A stretch of 64,000 nt of DNA from Spartobacteria bacterium (GTDB lineage: Bacteria; Verrucomicrobiota; Verrucomicrobiia; Chthoniobacterales; UBA6821): positions 26,061 to 90,060 of the forward strand of contig CANKWU010000004.1 in NCBI GenBank assembly GCA_947487385.1, given 5' to 3'. The first letter of the stretch is position 1. Each line of letters begins with the position of its first letter. The translations under genes and the position numbers were made by a program. The notes beneath the pieces were generated by a model. The model searched no databases, was not told where the DNA came from, and worked only from the letters and a program-made list of their open reading frames with translations. Positions 1 to 34,750 of this stretch are shown piece after piece.

Positions 1-133
1 CACAGAGGTAATTGGTCCTCACGGGAGAGGAAATCTCAGCGTACGCGCCGATGGCTCAGTCAGTCCGATTCAGGATCAGTAATGAGGAATTGTGTGTGGA
101 GTCATTCATGCCTTGCCATACCCTGAAGGATAA

Positions 134-298
134 ATATGGAACTCAGAATACCGAGCCGCAGGAGAGGCTGGGATAGACTTCTAAAGGTTGCCCAAAGGGA
201 AAGACGAGCGGGAACGAGCTAATCAAAAGAAAGTAGATTGTTTCTTGAGTTAGCTTGCCTGGCCGTTACTTTGCATCCGTTGAATCTGAGTTCCACAT
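134..298. repeat. TTCC-octamer inverted-repeat element, copy A (no ORF inside)
   Basis: Arms ATATGGAACTCAGA (134-147) and TCTGAGTTCCACAT (285-298) are complementary at 13/14 positions with a ~137-nt spacer. The ATGGAACTCAG core matches the elements at 4660-5102 and 34595-34741. The right arm ends 12 nt before ATG 311. Confidence 0.75.
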
Positions 299-310
299 TC
301 ATTGTTCAAT

Positions 311-3469: not shown

Positions 3470-3479
3470 TAAAAATAAA

Positions 3480-3503
3480 ATAGGAAACTCAGCAAATCAG
3501 GAA
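3480..3503 (-). promoter_or_regulatory. Start-proximal 24-mer (TTCCTGAT TTGCTGAG TTTCCTAT on the minus strand), 10 nt upstream of the hemL ATG
   Basis: Same three-octamer motif as upstream of nadA (4662-4685, minus strand) and ribF (34718-34741, plus strand). The function (promoter, processing site or translation signal) is not established. Confidence 0.5.
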
Positions 3504-3535
3504 TAGAAGGAATGGAGGCAAAGAAGCATTTCTCC

Positions 3536-3684
3536 CGCAGAGGCGCGGAGGCGCAGAGGAGATGGTGTGAGAGCAGATATTTTGGGATTCAGATTTTAGA
3601 ATTCTTCTTTTTTTTAAAGATGGCTTGTTTGGGGGCTTCCTCTGAATTCCATCTTAAAAATCTCTGCGCCTCTGCGCCTCTGCG
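3536..3684. repeat. GC-rich octamer inverted repeat between nadA and hemL
   Basis: CGCAGAGGCGCGGAGGCGCAGAG (3536-3558) and CTCTGCGCCTCTGCGCCTCTGCG (3662-3684) are reverse complements at 22/23 positions. Each arm is about 3 tandem GCGCAGAG-type octamers. The spacer is ~103 nt and contains a T9 run. Confidence 0.8.
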
Positions 3685-3704
3685 CGAGAACTTTCGACAT
3701 TCTG

Positions 3705-4649
3705 CTATCTGCTTAATTCCAGCATTCGGCGAACCGACTTCTCCGCCTTGGCCCGGAGACCCTCCTCGAGCAGGATCTCGGGTTTAAGGTCGCGGAGGCA
3801 GAGATAGAGTTTTTCCAAGGTATTCCTCTTCATGTAGCGGCACTCTGCACAGGCGCAGGTGTCAGTGGGTCCAGGGATGAACACTTTGTCAGGGATTTCC
3901 CGGCGGAGGCGGTGAAGCATTCCCTCCTCGGTGACGATGACAAAGGCGCTTGCTGGGGAACTCTTGCAATAACTCACCATCTTCTCGGTCGAGCAGACTT
4001 CATCGGCCAGCAAGCGCACGACCTGCGGACACTCGGGATGCGCTACCACAAGGGCCTTGGGATGCTCACGCTTCGCCCTTTCGATGCTGTCTCGAGTATA
4101 CTCCATGTGGACGTAGCAGGAGCCTTGCCAGAGATCCATGGGGCGGCCCGTCTGCTCGATGACCCAGGCACCGAGATTCTGATCCGGGACAAAGAGGATA
4201 TTGCGGTCGGAGGGTGTCGCCTTGACGATCTTCATGGCGTTCCCACTGGTGCAGATGACATCGGCGAGGGCTTTTACCCCAGCGCTACAGTTGATGTAGG
4301 CAATAACGAAGTAGTTTTTCTCGGCATGCTCCTTGAGAAATGACTCCAGTTTATCGGCAGGACACGAATCGGAGAGGGAACAGCCGGCCTCCATGTCGGG
4401 AATCACAACAGTCTTACCCGGGCTGAGGATCTTGGCCGTCTCACCCATGAAGTGAACCCCGCAGAAGACAATCACATCGGCATCAGTCTCGGCAGCCCTC
4501 TGACTGAGGCCGAGTGAATCGCCCACGAAATCGGCGACTTTCTGAATCTCCTCGATCTGGTAGTTATGCGCCAGAATGACGGCGTTCCTCTCCCTCTTCA
4601 GGCGGATGATCTCGGTCGCAAGATCGACGGAGCTTTGAGAATCAGACAT
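3705..4649 (-). CDS. nadA: Quinolinate synthase
   Basis: 314 aa with ILAHNYQ, VHFMGETAKIL and the conserved Cys residues of the NadA family. Typical length. Confidence 0.93.
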   Translation of the reverse strand: MSDSQSSVDLATEIIRLKRERNAVILAHNYQIEEIQKVADFVGDSLGLSQRAAETDADVIVFCGVHFMGETAKILSPGKTVVIPDMEAGCSLSDSCPADKLESFLKEHAEKNYFVIAYINCSAGVKALADVICTSGNAMKIVKATPSDRNILFVPDQNLGAWVIEQTGRPMDLWQGSCYVHMEYTRDSIERAKREHPKALVVAHPECPQVVRLLADEVCSTEKMVSYCKSSPASAFVIVTEEGMLHRLRREIPDKVFIPGPTDTCACAECRYMKRNTLEKLYLCLRDLKPEILLEEGLRAKAEKSVRRMLELSR

Positions 4650-4659
4650 AGAGACAATT

Positions 4660-5102
4660 TAATATGGAACTCATGAAATCAGGAAAAGGAGAGAGGAGAT
4701 AAGCGATAGGAATCTATGCCAACCCGTTTGATGGTAAGTGGCATTGAGGAAAAATTGAGAATGATGCCTGAGGTAGCGTTTGAGGCCTTCACATAGGATC
4801 GGACAATGGTGAAGTGGATGGCTTCAACTTCTTTCACGGCTTTCAGTTCCACAACCAGTTGTTCATCGATCAAGAGATCCAGACGATGTTCTCCGACCTT
4901 ATGATTGCGATAAGTAATTTCGACGGCTTTCTGACGCTCGTAGGCAATCCCTAGAAAGTTCAATTCCAGGCAAAGGGCCTCCTCATAGAATGACTCAAGG
5001 AATCCCGGCCCCAGCGATCGATGAACTTCAATAGCGGCTCCGATCACCTGCTCGCTCAGCTCATTGTCCTTCAGACTTCCTGATTTCCTGAGTTCCACAT
5101 TA
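4660..5102. repeat. TTCC-octamer inverted-repeat element, copy B, enclosing the GxxExxY ORF
   Basis: Arms TAATATGGAACTCATGAAATCAGGAA (4660-4685) and TTCCTGATTTCCTGAGTTCCACATTA (5077-5102) are complementary at 24/26 positions. The ORF start and stop codons both lie inside the arms. Confidence 0.85.
4679..5098 (-). CDS. GxxExxY protein (PD-(D/E)XK nuclease-like fold family)
   Basis: 139 codons from a GTG start. Signature GFLESFYEEAL matches G-x-x-E-x-x-Y, followed by the D/E...ELK core (LDLLIDEQLVVELKAV). The N-terminal ELRKSGS is encoded by the repeat arm. Confidence 0.85.
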   Translation of the reverse strand: MELRKSGSLKDNELSEQVIGAAIEVHRSLGPGFLESFYEEALCLELNFLGIAYERQKAVEITYRNHKVGEHRLDLLIDEQLVVELKAVKEVEAIHFTIVRSYVKASNATSGIILNFSSMPLTIKRVGIDSYRLSPLSFS

Positions 5103-5110
5103 TCAATCCT

Positions 5111-7912
5111 CTAATTAGCCTCGTTGATGAGTTGGCGGAGGATGAAGGGAAGGATGCCGCCATGGCGGTAGTAGTCGACCTCGATTGGGGTATCGATGCG
5201 GACCTTGACCGTGACGTCCTGAGTACTGCCATTCTTGCGGGATATGCGCAGAAGAAGTTCCTGACGGGGCTTTAGATCTTCGCCAAGGCCTACGATGTCG
5301 TAGGTCTCGGTGCCATCGAGTTCGAGGGTCTGGGCTGTTGTTCCCTCGTGGAACTGGAGAGGGAGGATGCCCATGCCGACGAGGTTGGAACGGTGGATAC
5401 GCTCGTAGCTGGCGGCAACGACGGCTTTCACCCCGAGGAGGCGCGTTCCCTTGGCGGCCCAATCACGGCTGCTACCAGTGCCGTATTCCTGACCAGCGAT
5501 GATGACGAGAGGGGTCATCTCCGCCTGATACTTGCTGGAGGCGTCGTAGATGCTCATGCGCTCGCCGTCGGGTTGGTGGAGAGTCTCACCACCCTCCACA
5601 CCGGGAAGCATCAGGTTTTTGATGCGCACGTTGGCAAAAGTGCCACGGGTCATGATGCGGTCATTGCCTCGGCGGCTGCCATAGCTGTTGAAGTCATCCT
5701 TGGTGACTCCGTGTTCGCTGAGGAAGCGGCCTGCTGGGGACTTCTCCTTGATGGCTCCAGCCGGGGAGATGTGGTCGGTCGTGACGGAATCACCGAAGAT
5801 GCCCAGCGCACGGGCTCCGGAGATCGGAGTGATCACGCCGGCTTCCATACCGAAGTTTTCGAAGAAGGGGGGCTCCTGGATGTAGGTGCTCTTGGTATCC
5901 CACTCATAGATCTCTCCGGTCGGGGCACTGATCTCGTTCCACTTGGGATTCTGTCCTGCAAAATCGCCGTACAATGTGGCAAACATCTCCGGTGTGAGGG
6001 CGCTGCGCAGTGTGTCGCGAATCTCGGCGAGGCTGGGCCAGATGTCCTTGAGGAAGATCTCTTTGCCTTCCTTGCCCTTGCCGATCGGCTCCTTGGCGAA
6101 GTCTATGTCAACTCTACCTGCCAACGCGAAGGCGACCACAAGGGGAGGGGACATCAGGAAGTTGGCCTTGATATTTTGGTGGATGCGGGCCTCAAAGTTG
6201 CGGTTGCCTGAGAGGACGGCGGCGGCAACAAGATCGTTATCGGTGATCGCCTTTTCTACCTCGGGATTAAGCGGGCCGGAATTACCGATACAGGTGGTGC
6301 AACCGTATCCGACGGTCTGGAACCCAAGTTTGTCGAAGTAGGGCGTGAGACCCGTCTTGTCGAGGTAGGCGGTGACGACACGTGAGCCGGGGGCCAACGA
6401 GGTCTTCACCGTGGGATCCATCTCGAGGCCGAGTTCCACGGCTTTCTTTGCCAGAAGTCCCGCTGCGAGCATGACACTCGGATTGCTGGTATTCGTGCAA
6501 CTGGTGATGGCGGCGATCAGAACGGATCCATTGCGGATGGTGCTCTTGCTGGCGTGCTCGCCATGGTAGGGAGACTCGGGCATCTGGTCGACAGGATCGG
6601 GCGTGGGGCGGTCACTGATCATTTCTTCCTCATCGGCAGGAATGGTCGGATTGCGACGGGCAACCAAGCCCTCCGCGGAGAGAGCTTTCTCGTTTTTACC
6701 ATAGCCACCCTCGGCGACTGGCTTGGTGAGGAGTTCGTGGAAGAGAGGCTTGAGTTGGGGAAGGTCGATGCGGTCTTGGGGACGCTTCGGTCCGGCGACG
6801 CTCGGTACCACCGTTGAGAGGTCGAGATCGAGGTCGACGCTGTAGTCGATCTGGCCCTTGCGGGGCATGCCGAACATACCCTGGGCTTTGAAGTAGTTCT
6901 CAAAGGCGCTGCACTCCGCCTCGGTGCGACCCGTTGCGCGAAGGAATGAGACGGATTCTGAATCAACGGGGAAGATGCCCATCGTGGCGCCGTATTCGGG
7001 TGCCATGTTGGCAATCGTGGCGCGGTCGGGGAGGGGTAGCAATTCGGCACCCTCGCCGTAGAACTCGACGAACTTGCCGACAACCTTTGCAGCGCGGAGC
7101 ATCTGGGTAACACGCAGCGCGAGATCGGTGGCGGTGACTCCTTCGCTGAGCTTTCCAGTCAGGTGGACGCCGACGACCTCGGGTGTGAGGAAATAGACAG
7201 GCTGTCCGAGCATTCCAGCTTCTGCCTCGATGCCACCTACACCCCAGCCGACGACACCAAGACCATTGATCATGGTGGTGTGGGAGTCAGTGCCGACAAG
7301 GCTGTCGGGATAATAAACACCACCGGAATGGAGGACGCCGCGGGCCAGATACTCGAGATTCACCTGGTGGACGATGCCGATACCGGGAGGAACAACACCG
7401 AAGGTCTCAAAAGCTCCTTGGCCCCACTTCAGGAACTCATAGCGCTCGCGGTTTCGCGTGAACTCCATATCGAGATTCAGCTTCATCGCATCGGCCCAGC
7501 CGTAATAGTCGACCTGCACCGAGTGGTCGACGACGAGGTCGACTGGGACAAGGGGCTCGATGATACCTGGCTTCCCTCCGAGGCGGGCCACAGCACTCCG
7601 CATCGCTGCTAGATCTACGAGCAAAGGCACTCCGGTGAAGTCCTGCAGCACGATGCGGGCGACGACAAAGGGAATCTCCTCAGGAGCCGGTGCCTTGGCA
7701 TTCCAGGCAGCCAGGGCCTTCACATCCTTCTCATGGACCTTCTTGTTATCGCAATTACGCAACACCGACTCCAGGACCACTCGGATCGAGAAGGGAAGGC
7801 GAGAGATCTTGCCAAGGCCCTGTTCCTCAAGTGCCGGGAGTGAGTAGAAGGATGAGTTCGTACCGGCGGTTGACTCGAAGCTGCGGAGTGTCTTGAAGAG
7901 GTCGGTGCTCAT
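5111..7912 (-). CDS. acnA: Aconitate hydratase A
   Basis: 933 aa with [18 protein letters not shown] and [10 protein letters not shown] (Fe-S cluster cysteines). AcnA/IRP-type length. Confidence 0.95.
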
Positions 7913-7959
7913 TGGTAATCGGATCTAGGGAATGGGTGATGGGTAATGGGTTAGAAGGA

Positions 7960-8013
7960 TGAAATCAGAAACGTGAAAACCTGAACGGCTGAACGGCTGA
8001 ACTGCTGAAAATC
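7960..8013. repeat. Phased TGAA heptamer/octamer run (TGAACGGC x2, TGAACTGC, TGAAAATC, preceded by TGAAATC.. and TGAAAAC)
   Basis: TGAA recurs at 7960, 7974, 7982, 7990, 7998 and 8006. The run lies in the spacer between the peroxiredoxin stop and the acnA start. No complementary partner arm was found. Confidence 0.6.
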
Positions 8014-11923: not shown

Positions 11924-12018
11924 TAAATTAACACCCTAGTGATTGATCTCAGCGTCTTCAATCCGAATGGGTGGGAATGCTTTGAAATAAGTCAAAGAAT
12001 CAGAGTTCCATCTGTCCA

Positions 12019-13221
12019 ATGTGTTCCGTCTCCCGTTCTTGCAATTGCATCGCAGTGAAGGCATTCTCATGTATTGCCACTGGCGCGTGGCAAAACCTTT
12101 CTTTCACTGAATTCTTGAAACTTCTCGATCGTTATCTTTTGACCGCTCTCGGTGTTGCAACCCTGATGGGTGTTGCCCTGCTAAGCGTGGTGCTAGTCCT
12201 GGGGAATGTCTTCAAGGAGATGCTGGATCTGCTGATCAATCACAGCGTGCCACTTGAAACGGTGTTTGGATTTGTCGCCTTCGTCCTTCCTTTCTCAATG
12301 ACTTTCACTATCCCGTGGGGATTTCTCACGGCCGTGCTGTTGGTCTTCGGGCGTCTCTCGGCGGATAATGAAATCATCGCCCTGCGTTCGAATGGTGTGA
12401 GCTTCCCCAGGGTCTTTATCCCTGTTCTGGCCATGGCTCTGATGCTTGTCGGGATCTGTTTCTGGATCAATTGTAATGTCGCCCCGCGTGCTCAGTATTC
12501 GATGCTGAACTCCCTGTTTCGCATCGCGACGAGCAATCCCGTTTCCTTGTTCCAGCCGGACGAGGTGGTCGATCAGTTTCCGGATCGCAGGATCTTCGTG
12601 GGCGGGCGCGACGGGGATCTCATGAAGAATCTCGTGGTCTTCGAGCTGGATGATCAAGGAGCCATTTCGAAGGTTGTCTTCGCCAAGACCGGCACTCTCT
12701 CCACCGACACGGAGAACCATCGTCTGCTTCTCAGGGTGCAGGATGCCAACTTCGAGCAACGTGATGAGAAGGATCCTCAGAATGTGAACCTGATCCGCCA
12801 AGGCATCACGATGAGGGAAGGAGTCTTCCCGATGTCGCTCCAGAAGCTTATCAACCAGAAGAAAAGGGGCAAGCCGCTCACATCCCATACTCTCAAGGAG
12901 CTGTTCGAGGAGATTTCAAAACCTGACTGTCCGCGGAGACTTGCTTACCAGGTGGAGGTCAGCAAACGCTTCTCTCTTTCGCTTGCGGCCCTCTCCTTTG
13001 CCCTCATTGCTGTCCCTCTTGGGATCACGACCCATCGTAAGGAGACTTCCGTCGGATTCGCCCTGAGTCTGGTGATCGCCTTTGGTTATTTCTTTCTCAT
13101 TATTATCGCCGACACCTTCCACGAAAATCCCCACGCCATGCCGGTTCTGTTGGTCTGGTTACCCAATCTCCTATTCACGAGTTTTGGAATCTGGCTCTTC
13201 TCGCGCCTTGCCCGTCGGTAA
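12019..13221 (+). CDS. LptF/LptG-family (YjgP/YjgQ) permease
   Basis: KLLDRYLLTALGVATLMG is a typical family N-terminus, with a 3+3 TM layout around a periplasmic insert. The start is uncertain: ATG 12019, or in-frame TTG 12115 giving MKLLDRYL. Confidence 0.82.
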   Translation: MCSVSRSCNCIAVKAFSCIATGAWQNLSFTEFLKLLDRYLLTALGVATLMGVALLSVVLVLGNVFKEMLDLLINHSVPLETVFGFVAFVLPFSMTFTIPWGFLTAVLLVFGRLSADNEIIALRSNGVSFPRVFIPVLAMALMLVGICFWINCNVAPRAQYSMLNSLFRIATSNPVSLFQPDEVVDQFPDRRIFVGGRDGDLMKNLVVFELDDQGAISKVVFAKTGTLSTDTENHRLLLRVQDANFEQRDEKDPQNVNLIRQGITMREGVFPMSLQKLINQKKRGKPLTSHTLKELFEEISKPDCPRRLAYQVEVSKRFSLSLAALSFALIAVPLGITTHRKETSVGFALSLVIAFGYFFLIIIADTFHENPHAMPVLLVWLPNLLFTSFGIWLFSRLARR

Positions 13222-24114: not shown

Positions 24115-24185
24115 TGCCCTGTGGTGTAACGGTAACACAGTGCCCTTTGGAGGCATTATTCATGGTTCGAATCCATGCGGGGCAG
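24115..24185 (+). tRNA. tRNA-Gln (anticodon UUG)
   Basis: Cloverleaf folded by hand. Acceptor TGCCCTG/CGGGGCA, D stem GTGT/ACAC, anticodon stem GTGCC/GGCAT with loop CTTTGGA, and T arm CATGG-TTCGAAT-CCATG. 71 nt, no encoded CCA. Confidence 0.9.
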
Positions 24186-34571: not shown

Positions 34572-34594
34572 AAACTTTCCTGCAGAGTTTTTTA

Positions 34595-34741
34595 ATATGG
34601 AACTCAGGAACTCAGGAAAAAACTGAGAACTGAAGTGAAATTGTTAGAGACTGAATCTGAAATGCCTCGCTTAGCTTTTCATAGGGATTCTTGATTCTGT
34701 TTCCTGCTGGCAATCACTTCCTGATTTCCTGATTTCCATAT
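34595..34741. repeat. TTCC-octamer inverted-repeat element, copy C (no ORF inside)
   Basis: ATATGGAACTCAGGAACTCAGGAA (34595-34618) and TTCCTGATTTCCTGATTTCCATAT (34718-34741) are complementary at 22/24 positions with a ~99-nt spacer. The right arm ends 9 nt before the ribF ATG. Confidence 0.85.
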
Positions 34742-34750
34742 TTTTTCTCC

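Follow-up and report, generated by a model that had tools for sequence, protein, structure and literature searches.

Within a stretch of 64,000 nucleotides from a Spartobacteria bacterium (contig CANKWU010000004.1, positions 26,061 to 90,060; in the following called the window), a small open reading frame (ORF) for a GxxExxY protein lies between the aconitase gene acnA and the gene nadA and is enclosed from start to stop by an inverted repeat made of octamers. This arrangement raises the question of what kind of element the gene and its flanks form at a junction of two housekeeping genes. The explanation that we favor, with about even confidence, is a hairpin cassette similar to the intervening sequences (IVSs) of rRNA, selfish or domesticated, which is located at a junction of co-oriented genes and whose arms pair in the operon transcript. 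This hairpin-cassette architecture is widespread in several phyla and apparently undescribed; a search of the literature with GxxExxY, PDDEXK_3/PF13366 and the names of IVS proteins found no account of octamer-arm packaging.

The unit at the acnA-nadA junction

The arms of the inverted repeat were recovered where the sequence-only reading of this locus had placed them (Table 1). The left arm (TAATATGGAACTCATGAAATCAGGAA) and the right arm (TTCCTGATTTCCTGAGTTCCACATTA) are complementary at 24/26 positions (92%) and lie 391 nt apart; the whole unit comprises 443 nt with a 26-bp stem and two mismatches, one of which is a G·U pair on the sense strand. The proposed construction from three octamers was reproduced as well: the right arm consists of the octamers TTCCTGAT/TTCCTGAG/TTCCACAT, and Tandem Repeats Finder reports a period of 8 at 5077-5096. 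acnA, the cassette ORF and nadA are all located on the minus strand, and the unit fills the 461 nt that separate the stop of acnA (5111) from the start of nadA (4649), again at the coordinates described before. In a near-identical metagenome contig (L005; acnA 100%, nadA 99%) the Pfam domains Aconitase, PDDEXK_3 and NadA were identified. Both ends of the ORF lie within the arms, in agreement with the earlier description. The GTG codon had been called the only in-frame start; it is the sole one upstream of the conserved domain, but other start-type codons occur, for example the GTG at codon 18.

Inverted repeats of at least 24 nt with at most two mismatches within 1.6 kb were present in 0/60 locally shuffled windows, compared with three in the real window, every one of the octamer type. 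A 20-mer of the arm has 5 matches in the window at three or fewer mismatches versus 0 expected.

The minimum free energy (MFE) fold of the sense RNA (-157 kcal/mol, z = -2.8) contains the arm stem. The sequence-only reading had predicted that the arms would pair and leave the ORF in a loop of about 390 nt; the pairing and the loop stand, but the paired region exceeds 26 bp. Beyond the arms the fold continues with a 5-nt internal loop and six further pairs (about 38 nt in total), with positions 5108-5113 on the 5' side and 4651-4656 on the 3' side. The energy of the arm duplex is -35.5 kcal/mol, or -42.7 kcal/mol including the extension. The outer helix pairs the acnA stop codon UAG with CUA, the A of which is the first base of the nadA AUG, and the acnA stop and the nadA start are paired neighbours in the predicted fold. 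The Shine-Dalgarno-like motif GAGGA, which is also found in the orthologous loci L002 and L220, overlaps the acnA stop 8 nt ahead of the GTG and thus shows the classical layout of translational coupling.

On the coding strand from acnA to hemL no σ70-like promoter and no intrinsic terminator was found. The arm is followed by ATTAAATTG, which does not form the combination of a short GC-rich hairpin and a T-run. A terminator or promoter function of the arms was rejected, since consensus sites are missing from acnA to hemL. Rfam contained no family matching the arms or hairpins and gave no rRNA in the window; a tRNA gene at 24115-24185 is the sole Rfam match in the window at the gathering threshold.

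The enclosed protein is a predicted nuclease

The ORF of 139 codons matches the profiles TIGR04256 (GxxExxY; 1.6e-36, 125.2 bits at a cut-off of 35, model positions 1-115 of 116) and PF13366 (PDDEXK_3; 3.8e-35, 121.2 bits at a cut-off of 22), with the domain at residues 13-126, which bears out its earlier assignment to the GxxExxY family. The residues G32, E35, Y38, D74, E84 and K86 are invariant across 24 relatives. An AF2/AlphaFold model of the protein has a pLDDT of 86 and a restriction-endonuclease-like α/β core; its top fold match in the PDB is Cas4 SSO0001 (E = 1.4e-4, TM ~0.5), followed by λ-exonuclease-like enzymes, MGME1, AdnAB, Hjc and splicing endonuclease. Based on the intact catalytic residues and the fold model, the protein is predicted to be a PD-(D/E)XK nuclease. 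A PDB search by sequence revealed no solved relative, and no biochemical literature on GxxExxY proteins was found.

Residues 1-7 and 130-138 are encoded by the arms, as had been stated for the first seven or so residues and the C-terminal tail. Both segments have a pLDDT below 50 and are predicted to be disordered. Their sequences (ELRKSG… at the N-terminus and …SLSFS at the C-terminus) are nevertheless conserved, which is better explained at the nucleotide level because of this predicted disorder.

The window contains a single GxxExxY gene. The family comprises 16,492 clusters at 50% identity (E <= 1e-3). Two GxxExxY domains are present in many database proteins with lengths of 250-295 aa (e.g. 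P0244, P0248, P0250); these are probably tandem cassettes read through the arms, either as true fusions or as gene-calling artefacts. An association with defence systems, phages or plasmids was rejected: PADLOC gave only partial marginal matches (E = 6e-4 over 50 aa), PHROGs profiles and phage genomes gave no GxxExxY match, and among plasmids the family occurred in 6/72,556 records, all of them large and non-mobilizable.

The same packaging at other loci and on a second protein family

A protein-pattern scan of metagenome contigs yielded 80 GxxExxY loci with 39-70% identity, 75 of them with enough flanking sequence. A bracketing inverted repeat with a score of at least 14 was present in 54/75 loci. 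Reversed but not complemented controls scored 7-16 (all but one <=13), and shuffled sequences had a mean of about 8.5 and maxima <=14. At nearly all loci the arms consist of about three tandem units of about 8 nt, and the types of these units include (T/C)CAGGAA(A/C), CACAGAGA, CGCAGAGA/CGCGGAGG, CGCCAAGA, CGCAAAGA and CACGAAAG. In 1.13 Mb of DNA the lag-8 periodicity of the arms was bimodal with modes at about 0.2 and 0.8. Loop lengths fell into two classes as well: the 90 octamer-periodic pairs with a loop of 0-330 nt contained no gene, whereas a profile search detected GxxExxY in 36 of the 46 pairs with a loop of 380-700 nt; still longer "pairs" were arms of neighbouring elements joined together. 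The purine-rich arm is located upstream of the gene in 33/36 cases, and over all hairpins the order purine-rich arm, pyrimidine-rich arm prevails with 87 versus 2.

Three of four examples from RefSeq genomes have the bracketing repeat, which bears out the pattern for other phyla: Bacteroides finegoldii between radA and a FAD-dependent gene (score 22.5 vs 12.5), Bernardetia between ade and manC (score 18) and Sphingomonas parapaucimobilis between fabD and fabG-acpP (score 20.5). The records are NZ_OY725952.1 for B. finegoldii and NZ_CP155749.1 for S. parapaucimobilis, strain YK209. As all orthologues examined are bracketed too, the possibility raised in the sequence-only reading, that no other GxxExxY gene has such repeats, fell away.

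The arms belong together as pairs. Compared in the best register, an arm matches its own partner at 93% of positions and those of other cassettes at 57%, and the own partner is the best match in 18/22 cassettes. Moreover, in 19/30 cases the most similar protein belongs to a cassette of the same arm type, versus 4.4 expected, and 0/2000 permutations reached this statistic.

The packaging is not restricted to GxxExxY genes. L125, a contig syntenic with the window, carries between nadA and hemL a gene of the PF05635 family "23S rRNA-intervening sequence protein" (E = 2.4e-34) with octamer arms of its own. Six further PF05635 genes came from Verrucomicrobiota, Kiritimatiellae, Spirochaetia, Desulfatiglandales and others. 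Five of these six loci are bracketed by inverted TTAGGCTG/CAGCCTAA-type arrays (scores 15.5-26.5 vs <=12), the remaining one has a perfect 12-bp pair, and a co-oriented upstream gene is present at 6/6. The GxxExxY protein P0097 and the PF05635 protein P0126 are each reported from a JGI contig of 16,561 nt; probably they share one contig, so that both kinds of cassette co-occur closely as in L125.

In genome contigs at least 119 stretches with the same arms were found, mostly in Verrucomicrobiota, with 2 GxxExxY genes among them. Of the octamer-periodic pairs at these arm-selected loci 78/104 are gene-less. Gene-less hairpins with the same arms are much more numerous than the gene-bearing copies.

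The recurrence of the structure in independent assemblies and RefSeq genomes argues against an assembly artefact, just as the shuffled windows argue against a chance repeat. An integron-type cassette with an attC site resembles the unit superficially, with a small promoter-less ORF and a nearby palindrome. An attC site, however, is a self-contained hairpin 3' of the ORF, while the complementary halves are located on opposite sides of the ORF here, and no cassette array was seen, although no integrase search was made. These three explanations together are effectively refuted already, and we give them next to no probability.

Constraint and turnover at the junction

Relatives of the window protein down to about 64% identity are all located between acnA and nadA (P0023 in L001-L004, L125, L126, P0086 in L218, P0049 in L220 and P0100 in L223), and the 5' arm is kept in the orthologues of L002, L125, L126, L218, L220 and L223. 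A paralogous cassette (P0109) lies between nuoF and nuoG in another organism. Between lineages the ORF core has a dN/dS of 0.10-0.12 and nadA one of 0.05-0.08. With pS at 0.6-0.8, synonymous divergence is practically at saturation, whereas the arms differ by only 4-16%, the non-coding stretch of the 3' arm included. Purifying constraint acts on the ORF as well as on the arms.

In L126 and L223 three arm positions carry a substitution in each of the two arms (G·U→C:G, G·A→A:U, A:U→C:G), and the arms pair perfectly (28/28). The GTG of the arm is a CTG in these loci and the protein starts beyond the arm, yet the arms are perfect. Across six lineages 88.9% of the cells are paired and six pairs are changed on both sides versus 3.5 ± 1.2 in shuffles (23/500); in slid-register controls zero both-side changes occurred in every register.

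The junctions are polymorphic, so that the refuting case named in the sequence-only reading, an unvarying sequence at all orthologous junctions, did not occur. The window has the GxxExxY gene between acnA and nadA and no PF05635 gene between nadA and hemL, L125 has both, and L205 has only the latter. L205 and L206 show the order acnA-[102 nt]-nadA-PF05635-hemL without GxxExxY and without TTCC arms, and their acnA-nadA gap contains a different, imperfect palindrome. In L205 this gap comprises AATGGGAATGAG…CATCCCCAT, which may be of the AATGGG type. The nadA sequences of the window, L125 and L205 are mutually about 0.90 identical and that of L002 is more distant, so parsimony favors loss or replacement of the cassette in the L205 lineage. 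The similarity of possible arm remnants in the L205 acnA-nadA gap was not significant (p = 0.06-0.13), and the choice between loss and never having gained the cassette therefore rests on parsimony only.

Partial copies were found in other loci. In L002 (3420-3592) the cassette is followed by a duplicate of about 25 nt of the nadA start and then by the last 22 or so codons of a second GxxExxY gene from a different clade, the L126 type (MPITVKRVGRELISTSSFSLFS*), together with a 3' arm belonging to it; the arrangement resembles an allele replacement in which one junction was illegitimate. In L218 the tail and a partial arm are duplicated. L221 (1488-2168) contains a cassette inside the nuo operon (nuoF-nuoG), followed by two tandem gene-less hairpins and a duplicated 3' end of the ORF; its ATG start is created by the arm variant GGAACTCATGAAA. 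Taken together, gene and arms are inherited as one unit, and the cassette has long been fixed at acnA-nadA with occasional loss, replacement and partial duplication. The claim that the gene and its flanks behave as one module is supported by the bracketed relatives and the polymorphic junctions, with gene-less copies elsewhere.

Exact insertion between housekeeping genes (acnA and nadA, nuoF and nuoG, fabD and fabG, radA and the FAD-dependent gene) and the polymorphism for presence and absence would also be expected of a free-standing homing endonuclease, which would cut the unoccupied junction or a rival allele and be copied by recombinational repair, with the arms limiting the damage to the operon. 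The arrangement in L002, with the cassette, about 25 nt of the nadA 5' end and the 3' part of another GxxExxY gene, would fit co-conversion of flanks. PD-(D/E)XK enzymes are a recognised family of homing endonucleases, and intronless homing is established in T4-like phages (PMC6083498, PMC2988022), where small nuclease genes likewise lie precisely between conserved genes, are present or absent among relatives and show signs of allele replacement with flanks (PMC2988022). In contrast to these phage genes, the cassettes are located in bacterial chromosomes, have complementary arms and abundant gene-less derivatives and are stably inherited, and the family is absent from phages and nearly so from plasmids. 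The long vertical inheritance at one junction with saturated synonymous divergence argues against frequent homing, the 139 aa include no evident DNA-recognition domain, and gene-less hairpins and four-helix-bundle cassettes remain unexplained. We therefore consider homing an improbable account of the cassettes as a whole.

Still less probable in our view is a purely host-serving role, in which a long-range stem over the start codon would curb the expression of a cellular nuclease without selfish or mobile history. The start codon inside the stem, the purifying selection on the ORF and the stable genomic position agree with such a role. It leaves unaccounted for the hundreds of hairpins that have the same arms and no gene, the same packaging on an unrelated family, the different junctions across taxa or the loss in L205 without replacement, and the very large family is annotated only generically as "GxxExxY protein".

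Placement of cassettes and gene-less hairpins

Gene orientations were compared on the basis of heuristic gene calls. A co-oriented upstream neighbour is present at 45/49 cassettes (92%), versus 51/71 co-oriented cases among ordinary adjacent pairs (p = 0.0097); for the downstream neighbour (co-oriented in 45/57) the difference was not significant. The median distance from the upstream stop codon to the 5' arm is 8.5 nt, and that from the 3' arm to the first in-frame start codon of the downstream gene is 17 nt. The cassettes are therefore flush at operon junctions, and pairing of the arms would bring the stop and start codons back together.

Gene-less hairpins associate with gene starts. Classified by their neighbours, 27 are located between co-directional, 13 between divergent and 4 between convergent genes (n=44; loci L006-L124). 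Depletion between convergent genes and frequent occurrence between divergent genes is the opposite of the usual distribution of REP- or terminator-like elements (REP, repetitive extragenic palindromic sequence). The loops are mostly unrelated singletons, often with nested hairpins of other arm types, and small groups inside one metagenome-assembled genome (MAG) have related loops. An origin of the gene-less hairpins from GxxExxY cassettes by internal deletion was rejected, as the profile scores of the loops were no better than those of shuffled loops.

Copies of one miniature inverted-repeat transposable element (MITE) were rejected as well, since the loops are mostly unrelated and clusters arise mostly from nested arms. 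MITEs and other transposons with terminal inverted repeats (TIRs) share with the cassettes the terminal repeats and the excess of short gene-less over gene-bearing copies. They differ in that the unit in the window encodes no transposase (its only ORF is the 139-aa nuclease domain) and in that the arms are internally repetitive and evolve while staying complementary. No target-site duplication was found at the arms of this copy, where the sense flanks …GGATTGA/TAATG… and …ATATTA/AATTGTC… form no direct repeat; outside the arms the flanks run on as imperfect complement. The alternative that the arms are the TIRs of a small non-autonomous cassette thus failed for a classical TIR transposon, and the term "non-autonomous" is questionable for a cassette whose nuclease is intact and subject to purifying selection.

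Selection at the RNA or the DNA level

Several observations weigh against a cassette that acts through RNA pairing. The RefSeq example from Treponema was not significant, and 21/75 metagenome loci have no significant repeat. The covariation among the six lineages is marginal, and for this reason we place more weight on the comparison of partners across cassettes. On the sense strand G·U mismatches showed no excess over A·C mismatches: gene-bearing cassettes gave 15 vs 10, gene-less hairpins oriented by their flanking genes 16 vs 13, and the two sets together 31 vs 23 (p = 0.34). The signature of RNA-only selection that is usual for structured RNAs is hence absent, in a sample whose size excludes a strong bias only. 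The 13/44 gene-less hairpins between divergent genes are beyond the reach of upstream read-through. Finally, a bare RNase III stem needs neither tandem octamers nor shared arms at many loci. The identical arms at many loci indicate a copying or homogenising process at the DNA level, and with selection on RNA alone being unsupported by the mismatches, a DNA mechanism similar to REPIN/RAYT systems (REP doublets forming hairpins and their REP-associated tyrosine transposase) stays a serious rival.

According to this rival the arms would be DNA recognition or fold-back sites (single-stranded DNA hairpins or cruciforms) with RNA pairing being incidental, and a single-copy, vertically inherited GxxExxY nuclease would disperse or maintain the gene-less hairpins. 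The same arms recur across numerous loci and genomes; most of these pairs have no gene and a loop of 0-330 nt. The gene lies between inverted repeat copies, is inherited vertically and is under purifying selection. REPIN/RAYT systems are described likewise: a single gene is flanked by inverted short repeats which are also dispersed as gene-less intergenic doublets, and the systems persist for long, lie on chromosomes and seldom occur on plasmids or phages (PMC3116915, PMC3337134, bioRxiv 10.1101/2021.07.10.451892). Arm type tracks protein clade, mismatches are strand-symmetric, inverted tandem units are typical of protein-binding ends, hairpins are nested in hairpins and related loops occur in small groups per MAG, all of which would fit.

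The protein, however, is a PD-(D/E)XK enzyme and not an IS200/IS605-like Y1 (HUH) transposase; Pfam and NCBIfam give only PF13366 and TIGR04256, and we know of no strand-transfer activity of the PD-(D/E)XK fold on its own. The PF05635 four-helix bundles have the same packaging without a nuclease motif, so the passenger need not be the mobilising enzyme. Gene-less loops are mostly unrelated, which copies of a single element would not be. Each arm is an array of tandem octamers instead of one REP palindrome, and the genomes studied here hold many paralogous cassette types. REPs lie mostly at the 3' ends of genes, whereas the cassette hairpins favor gene starts and are depleted between convergent genes (4/44). 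A model at the DNA level alone also does not predict the co-oriented upstream bias and the flush placement of stop and start codons. We consider this rival less probable than the IVS-like hairpin cassette, although it is compatible with the latter and could supply its mechanism of spreading.

A possible mechanism and its relation to rRNA intervening sequences

In the IVS-like explanation a small gene, here that of the GxxExxY nuclease, would be packaged at a junction of host genes by complementary arms of about three octamers. The cassette would have no promoter and would be transcribed by read-through from acnA. Translation of the nuclease would be coupled to the acnA stop, which is overlapped by GAGGA and followed by the GTG 12 nt later, and the base of the stem would be melted by the ribosome that terminates at acnA. 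Within the transcript, the two arms would pair to a duplex of 26-38 bp, with the ORF looped out and the acnA stop placed beside the nadA start. Such a duplex would be an RNase III-type substrate, as in ORF-bearing rRNA IVSs, and the insertion could thereby be tolerated within the operon; by this analogy the arm stem is a likely substrate of RNase III. The arm sequences shared by many loci would in addition require copying at the DNA level, most plausibly with the encoded nuclease as the enzyme and the arms or unoccupied sites as its targets; this step is the least supported. As candidates for the mechanism of spreading, a REPIN/RAYT-like role of the nuclease leads and homing-type replacement comes second. 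The accounts at the RNA and the DNA level are complementary layers more than exclusive rivals.

The precedent cited in the sequence-only reading, the ORF-bearing IVSs of 23S rRNA, proved apt. The IVS in the 23S rRNA of Coxiella burnetii has 428-444 nt and a terminal stem of 28 bp containing one mismatch plus a bulge; its loop carries a PF05635 ORF, and the IVS is cut midway along the stem by RNase III in vitro (PMC4990558). The geometry of these IVSs (Leptospira, Coxiella burnetii; S23p/PF05635) is almost identical to that of the unit in the window, which likewise has a long enclosing stem of terminal repeats, and PF05635 genes occur in octamer arms outside rRNA as described above. Both types of element are sporadic and regarded as selfish, and versions with and without ORF coexist. 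They differ in the host site, which is an mRNA operon junction here and an rRNA helix in the IVSs, and in the ORF, which encodes a PF13366 PD-(D/E)XK protein instead of a PF05635 four-helix bundle. The window ORF is under strong purifying selection, whereas the S23p ORF of Coxiella is decaying. Excision by RNase III is demonstrated for IVSs and would apply to the cassette of the window by analogy.

Gene-less hairpins and other features of the window

The sequence-only reading had noted empty copies of the flanks elsewhere in the window, and at least three further pairs were found (Table 1). The hairpin at 34594-34745 occupies the gap between two co-oriented genes, with an ATG 5 nt past the arm and an energy of -49 kcal/mol. 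The hairpin at 124-308 is located immediately 5' of an ORF start (ATG 311 or TTG 302). At three sites (308, 34745/34751 and 4660/4651) the pyrimidine-rich arm ends 2-8 nt ahead of the next start codon, and no Shine-Dalgarno sequence was found between this arm and the next start at 308, 34745 and 4660.

Table 1. Positions of the cassette, its junctions and related hairpins in the window.
Feature	Position	Strand	Description
acnA	5111..7912	-	aconitase, upstream neighbour
Upstream junction	5103..5113	-	acnA stop UAG 5111-5113 overlaps Shine-Dalgarno-like GAGGA 5107-5111
5' (right) arm	5077..5102	-	sense strand TAATGTGGAACTCAGGAAATCAGGAA; three tandem octamers; contains the GTG start 5096-5098
GxxExxY gene	4679..5098	-	139 aa, GTG start; predicted minimal RecB/Cas4-like PD-(D/E)XK domain
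3' (left) arm	4660..4685	-	sense strand TTCCTGATTTCATGAGTTCCATATTA; contains the stop TGA 4679-4681; other 19 nt non-coding
Downstream junction	4649..4659	-	nadA AUG 4649-4651, 8 nt beyond the 3' arm
nadA	3705..4649	-	NadA, downstream neighbour
nadA-hemL gap	3478..3690		two gene-less hairpins, interleaved
Gene-less hairpin	34594..34745 (34594-34619/34718-34745)		same arms TAATATGGAACTCAGGAACTCAGGAA/TTCCTGATTTCCTGATTTCCATATT, loop of about 98 nt
Gene-less hairpin	124..308 (124-147/285-308)		shorter arms of the same family …ATATGGAACTCAGA/TCTGAGTTCCACAT…, loop of 137 nt

The nadA-hemL gap contains a degenerate TTCC-type pair (3478-3503/3637-3660) and a pair of CGCAGAGG/CTCTGCGC octamers (3530-3558/3662-3690) with 27/29 complementary positions. 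In the relatives L125 and L205 this place is taken by a complete PF05635 four-helix-bundle cassette. Their arms follow each other in the order 5' arm A, 5' arm B, 3' arm a, 3' arm b and are not nested. With the arms interleaved, the two stems cannot both be simple helices, and such an order would not arise if one element had inserted into the other's loop. A spurious-looking ORF (3512-3787, plus strand) reads through these arms (…RRGAEAQRR… / …LCASAPLRE…).

Arrays were also observed at other sites. The gap between acnA and ahpC contains at 7931-8009 the adjoining tandem arrays (AATGGGT)x3 and (CTGAACGG)x3.6 with no complementary partner nearby; these may be solo arms. At 12001-12011 a lone half-site ATGGAACTCTG with one mismatch to the arm core is located just 5' of the ORF 12019..13221 on the plus strand and may be a worn-down arm.

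Significance

GxxExxY and PF05635 are very large families that occur in several phyla and have no assigned function, and neither an origin nor a mobility mechanism has been known for rRNA intervening sequences ever since they were discovered (discussed in PMC4990558). The shared octamer-arm packaging links these three into one testable system, for which Sphingomonas (fabD-fabG junction) and Bacteroides (radA junction) are cultivable carriers. For annotation, it follows that repeat-encoded termini, two-domain "fusions" and short ORFs like that at 3512-3787 of the window are likely artefacts of reading through arms. The hairpins may furthermore influence the expression of core metabolic operons. 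We tentatively suggest, as a possibility that we would not yet prefer, that the GxxExxY and PF05635 genes are the gene-bearing master copies of a mobile, hitherto unrecognised class of "operon IVSs" that spans phyla and inserts at gene junctions. These would be neutralised in the RNA by RNase III acting on the octamer stems and propagated in the DNA, along with the gene-less hairpins, by the encoded nuclease acting on the arms, and the rRNA IVSs would be a subset of them. If this were true, the rRNA IVSs would gain both an origin and a mechanism of mobility.

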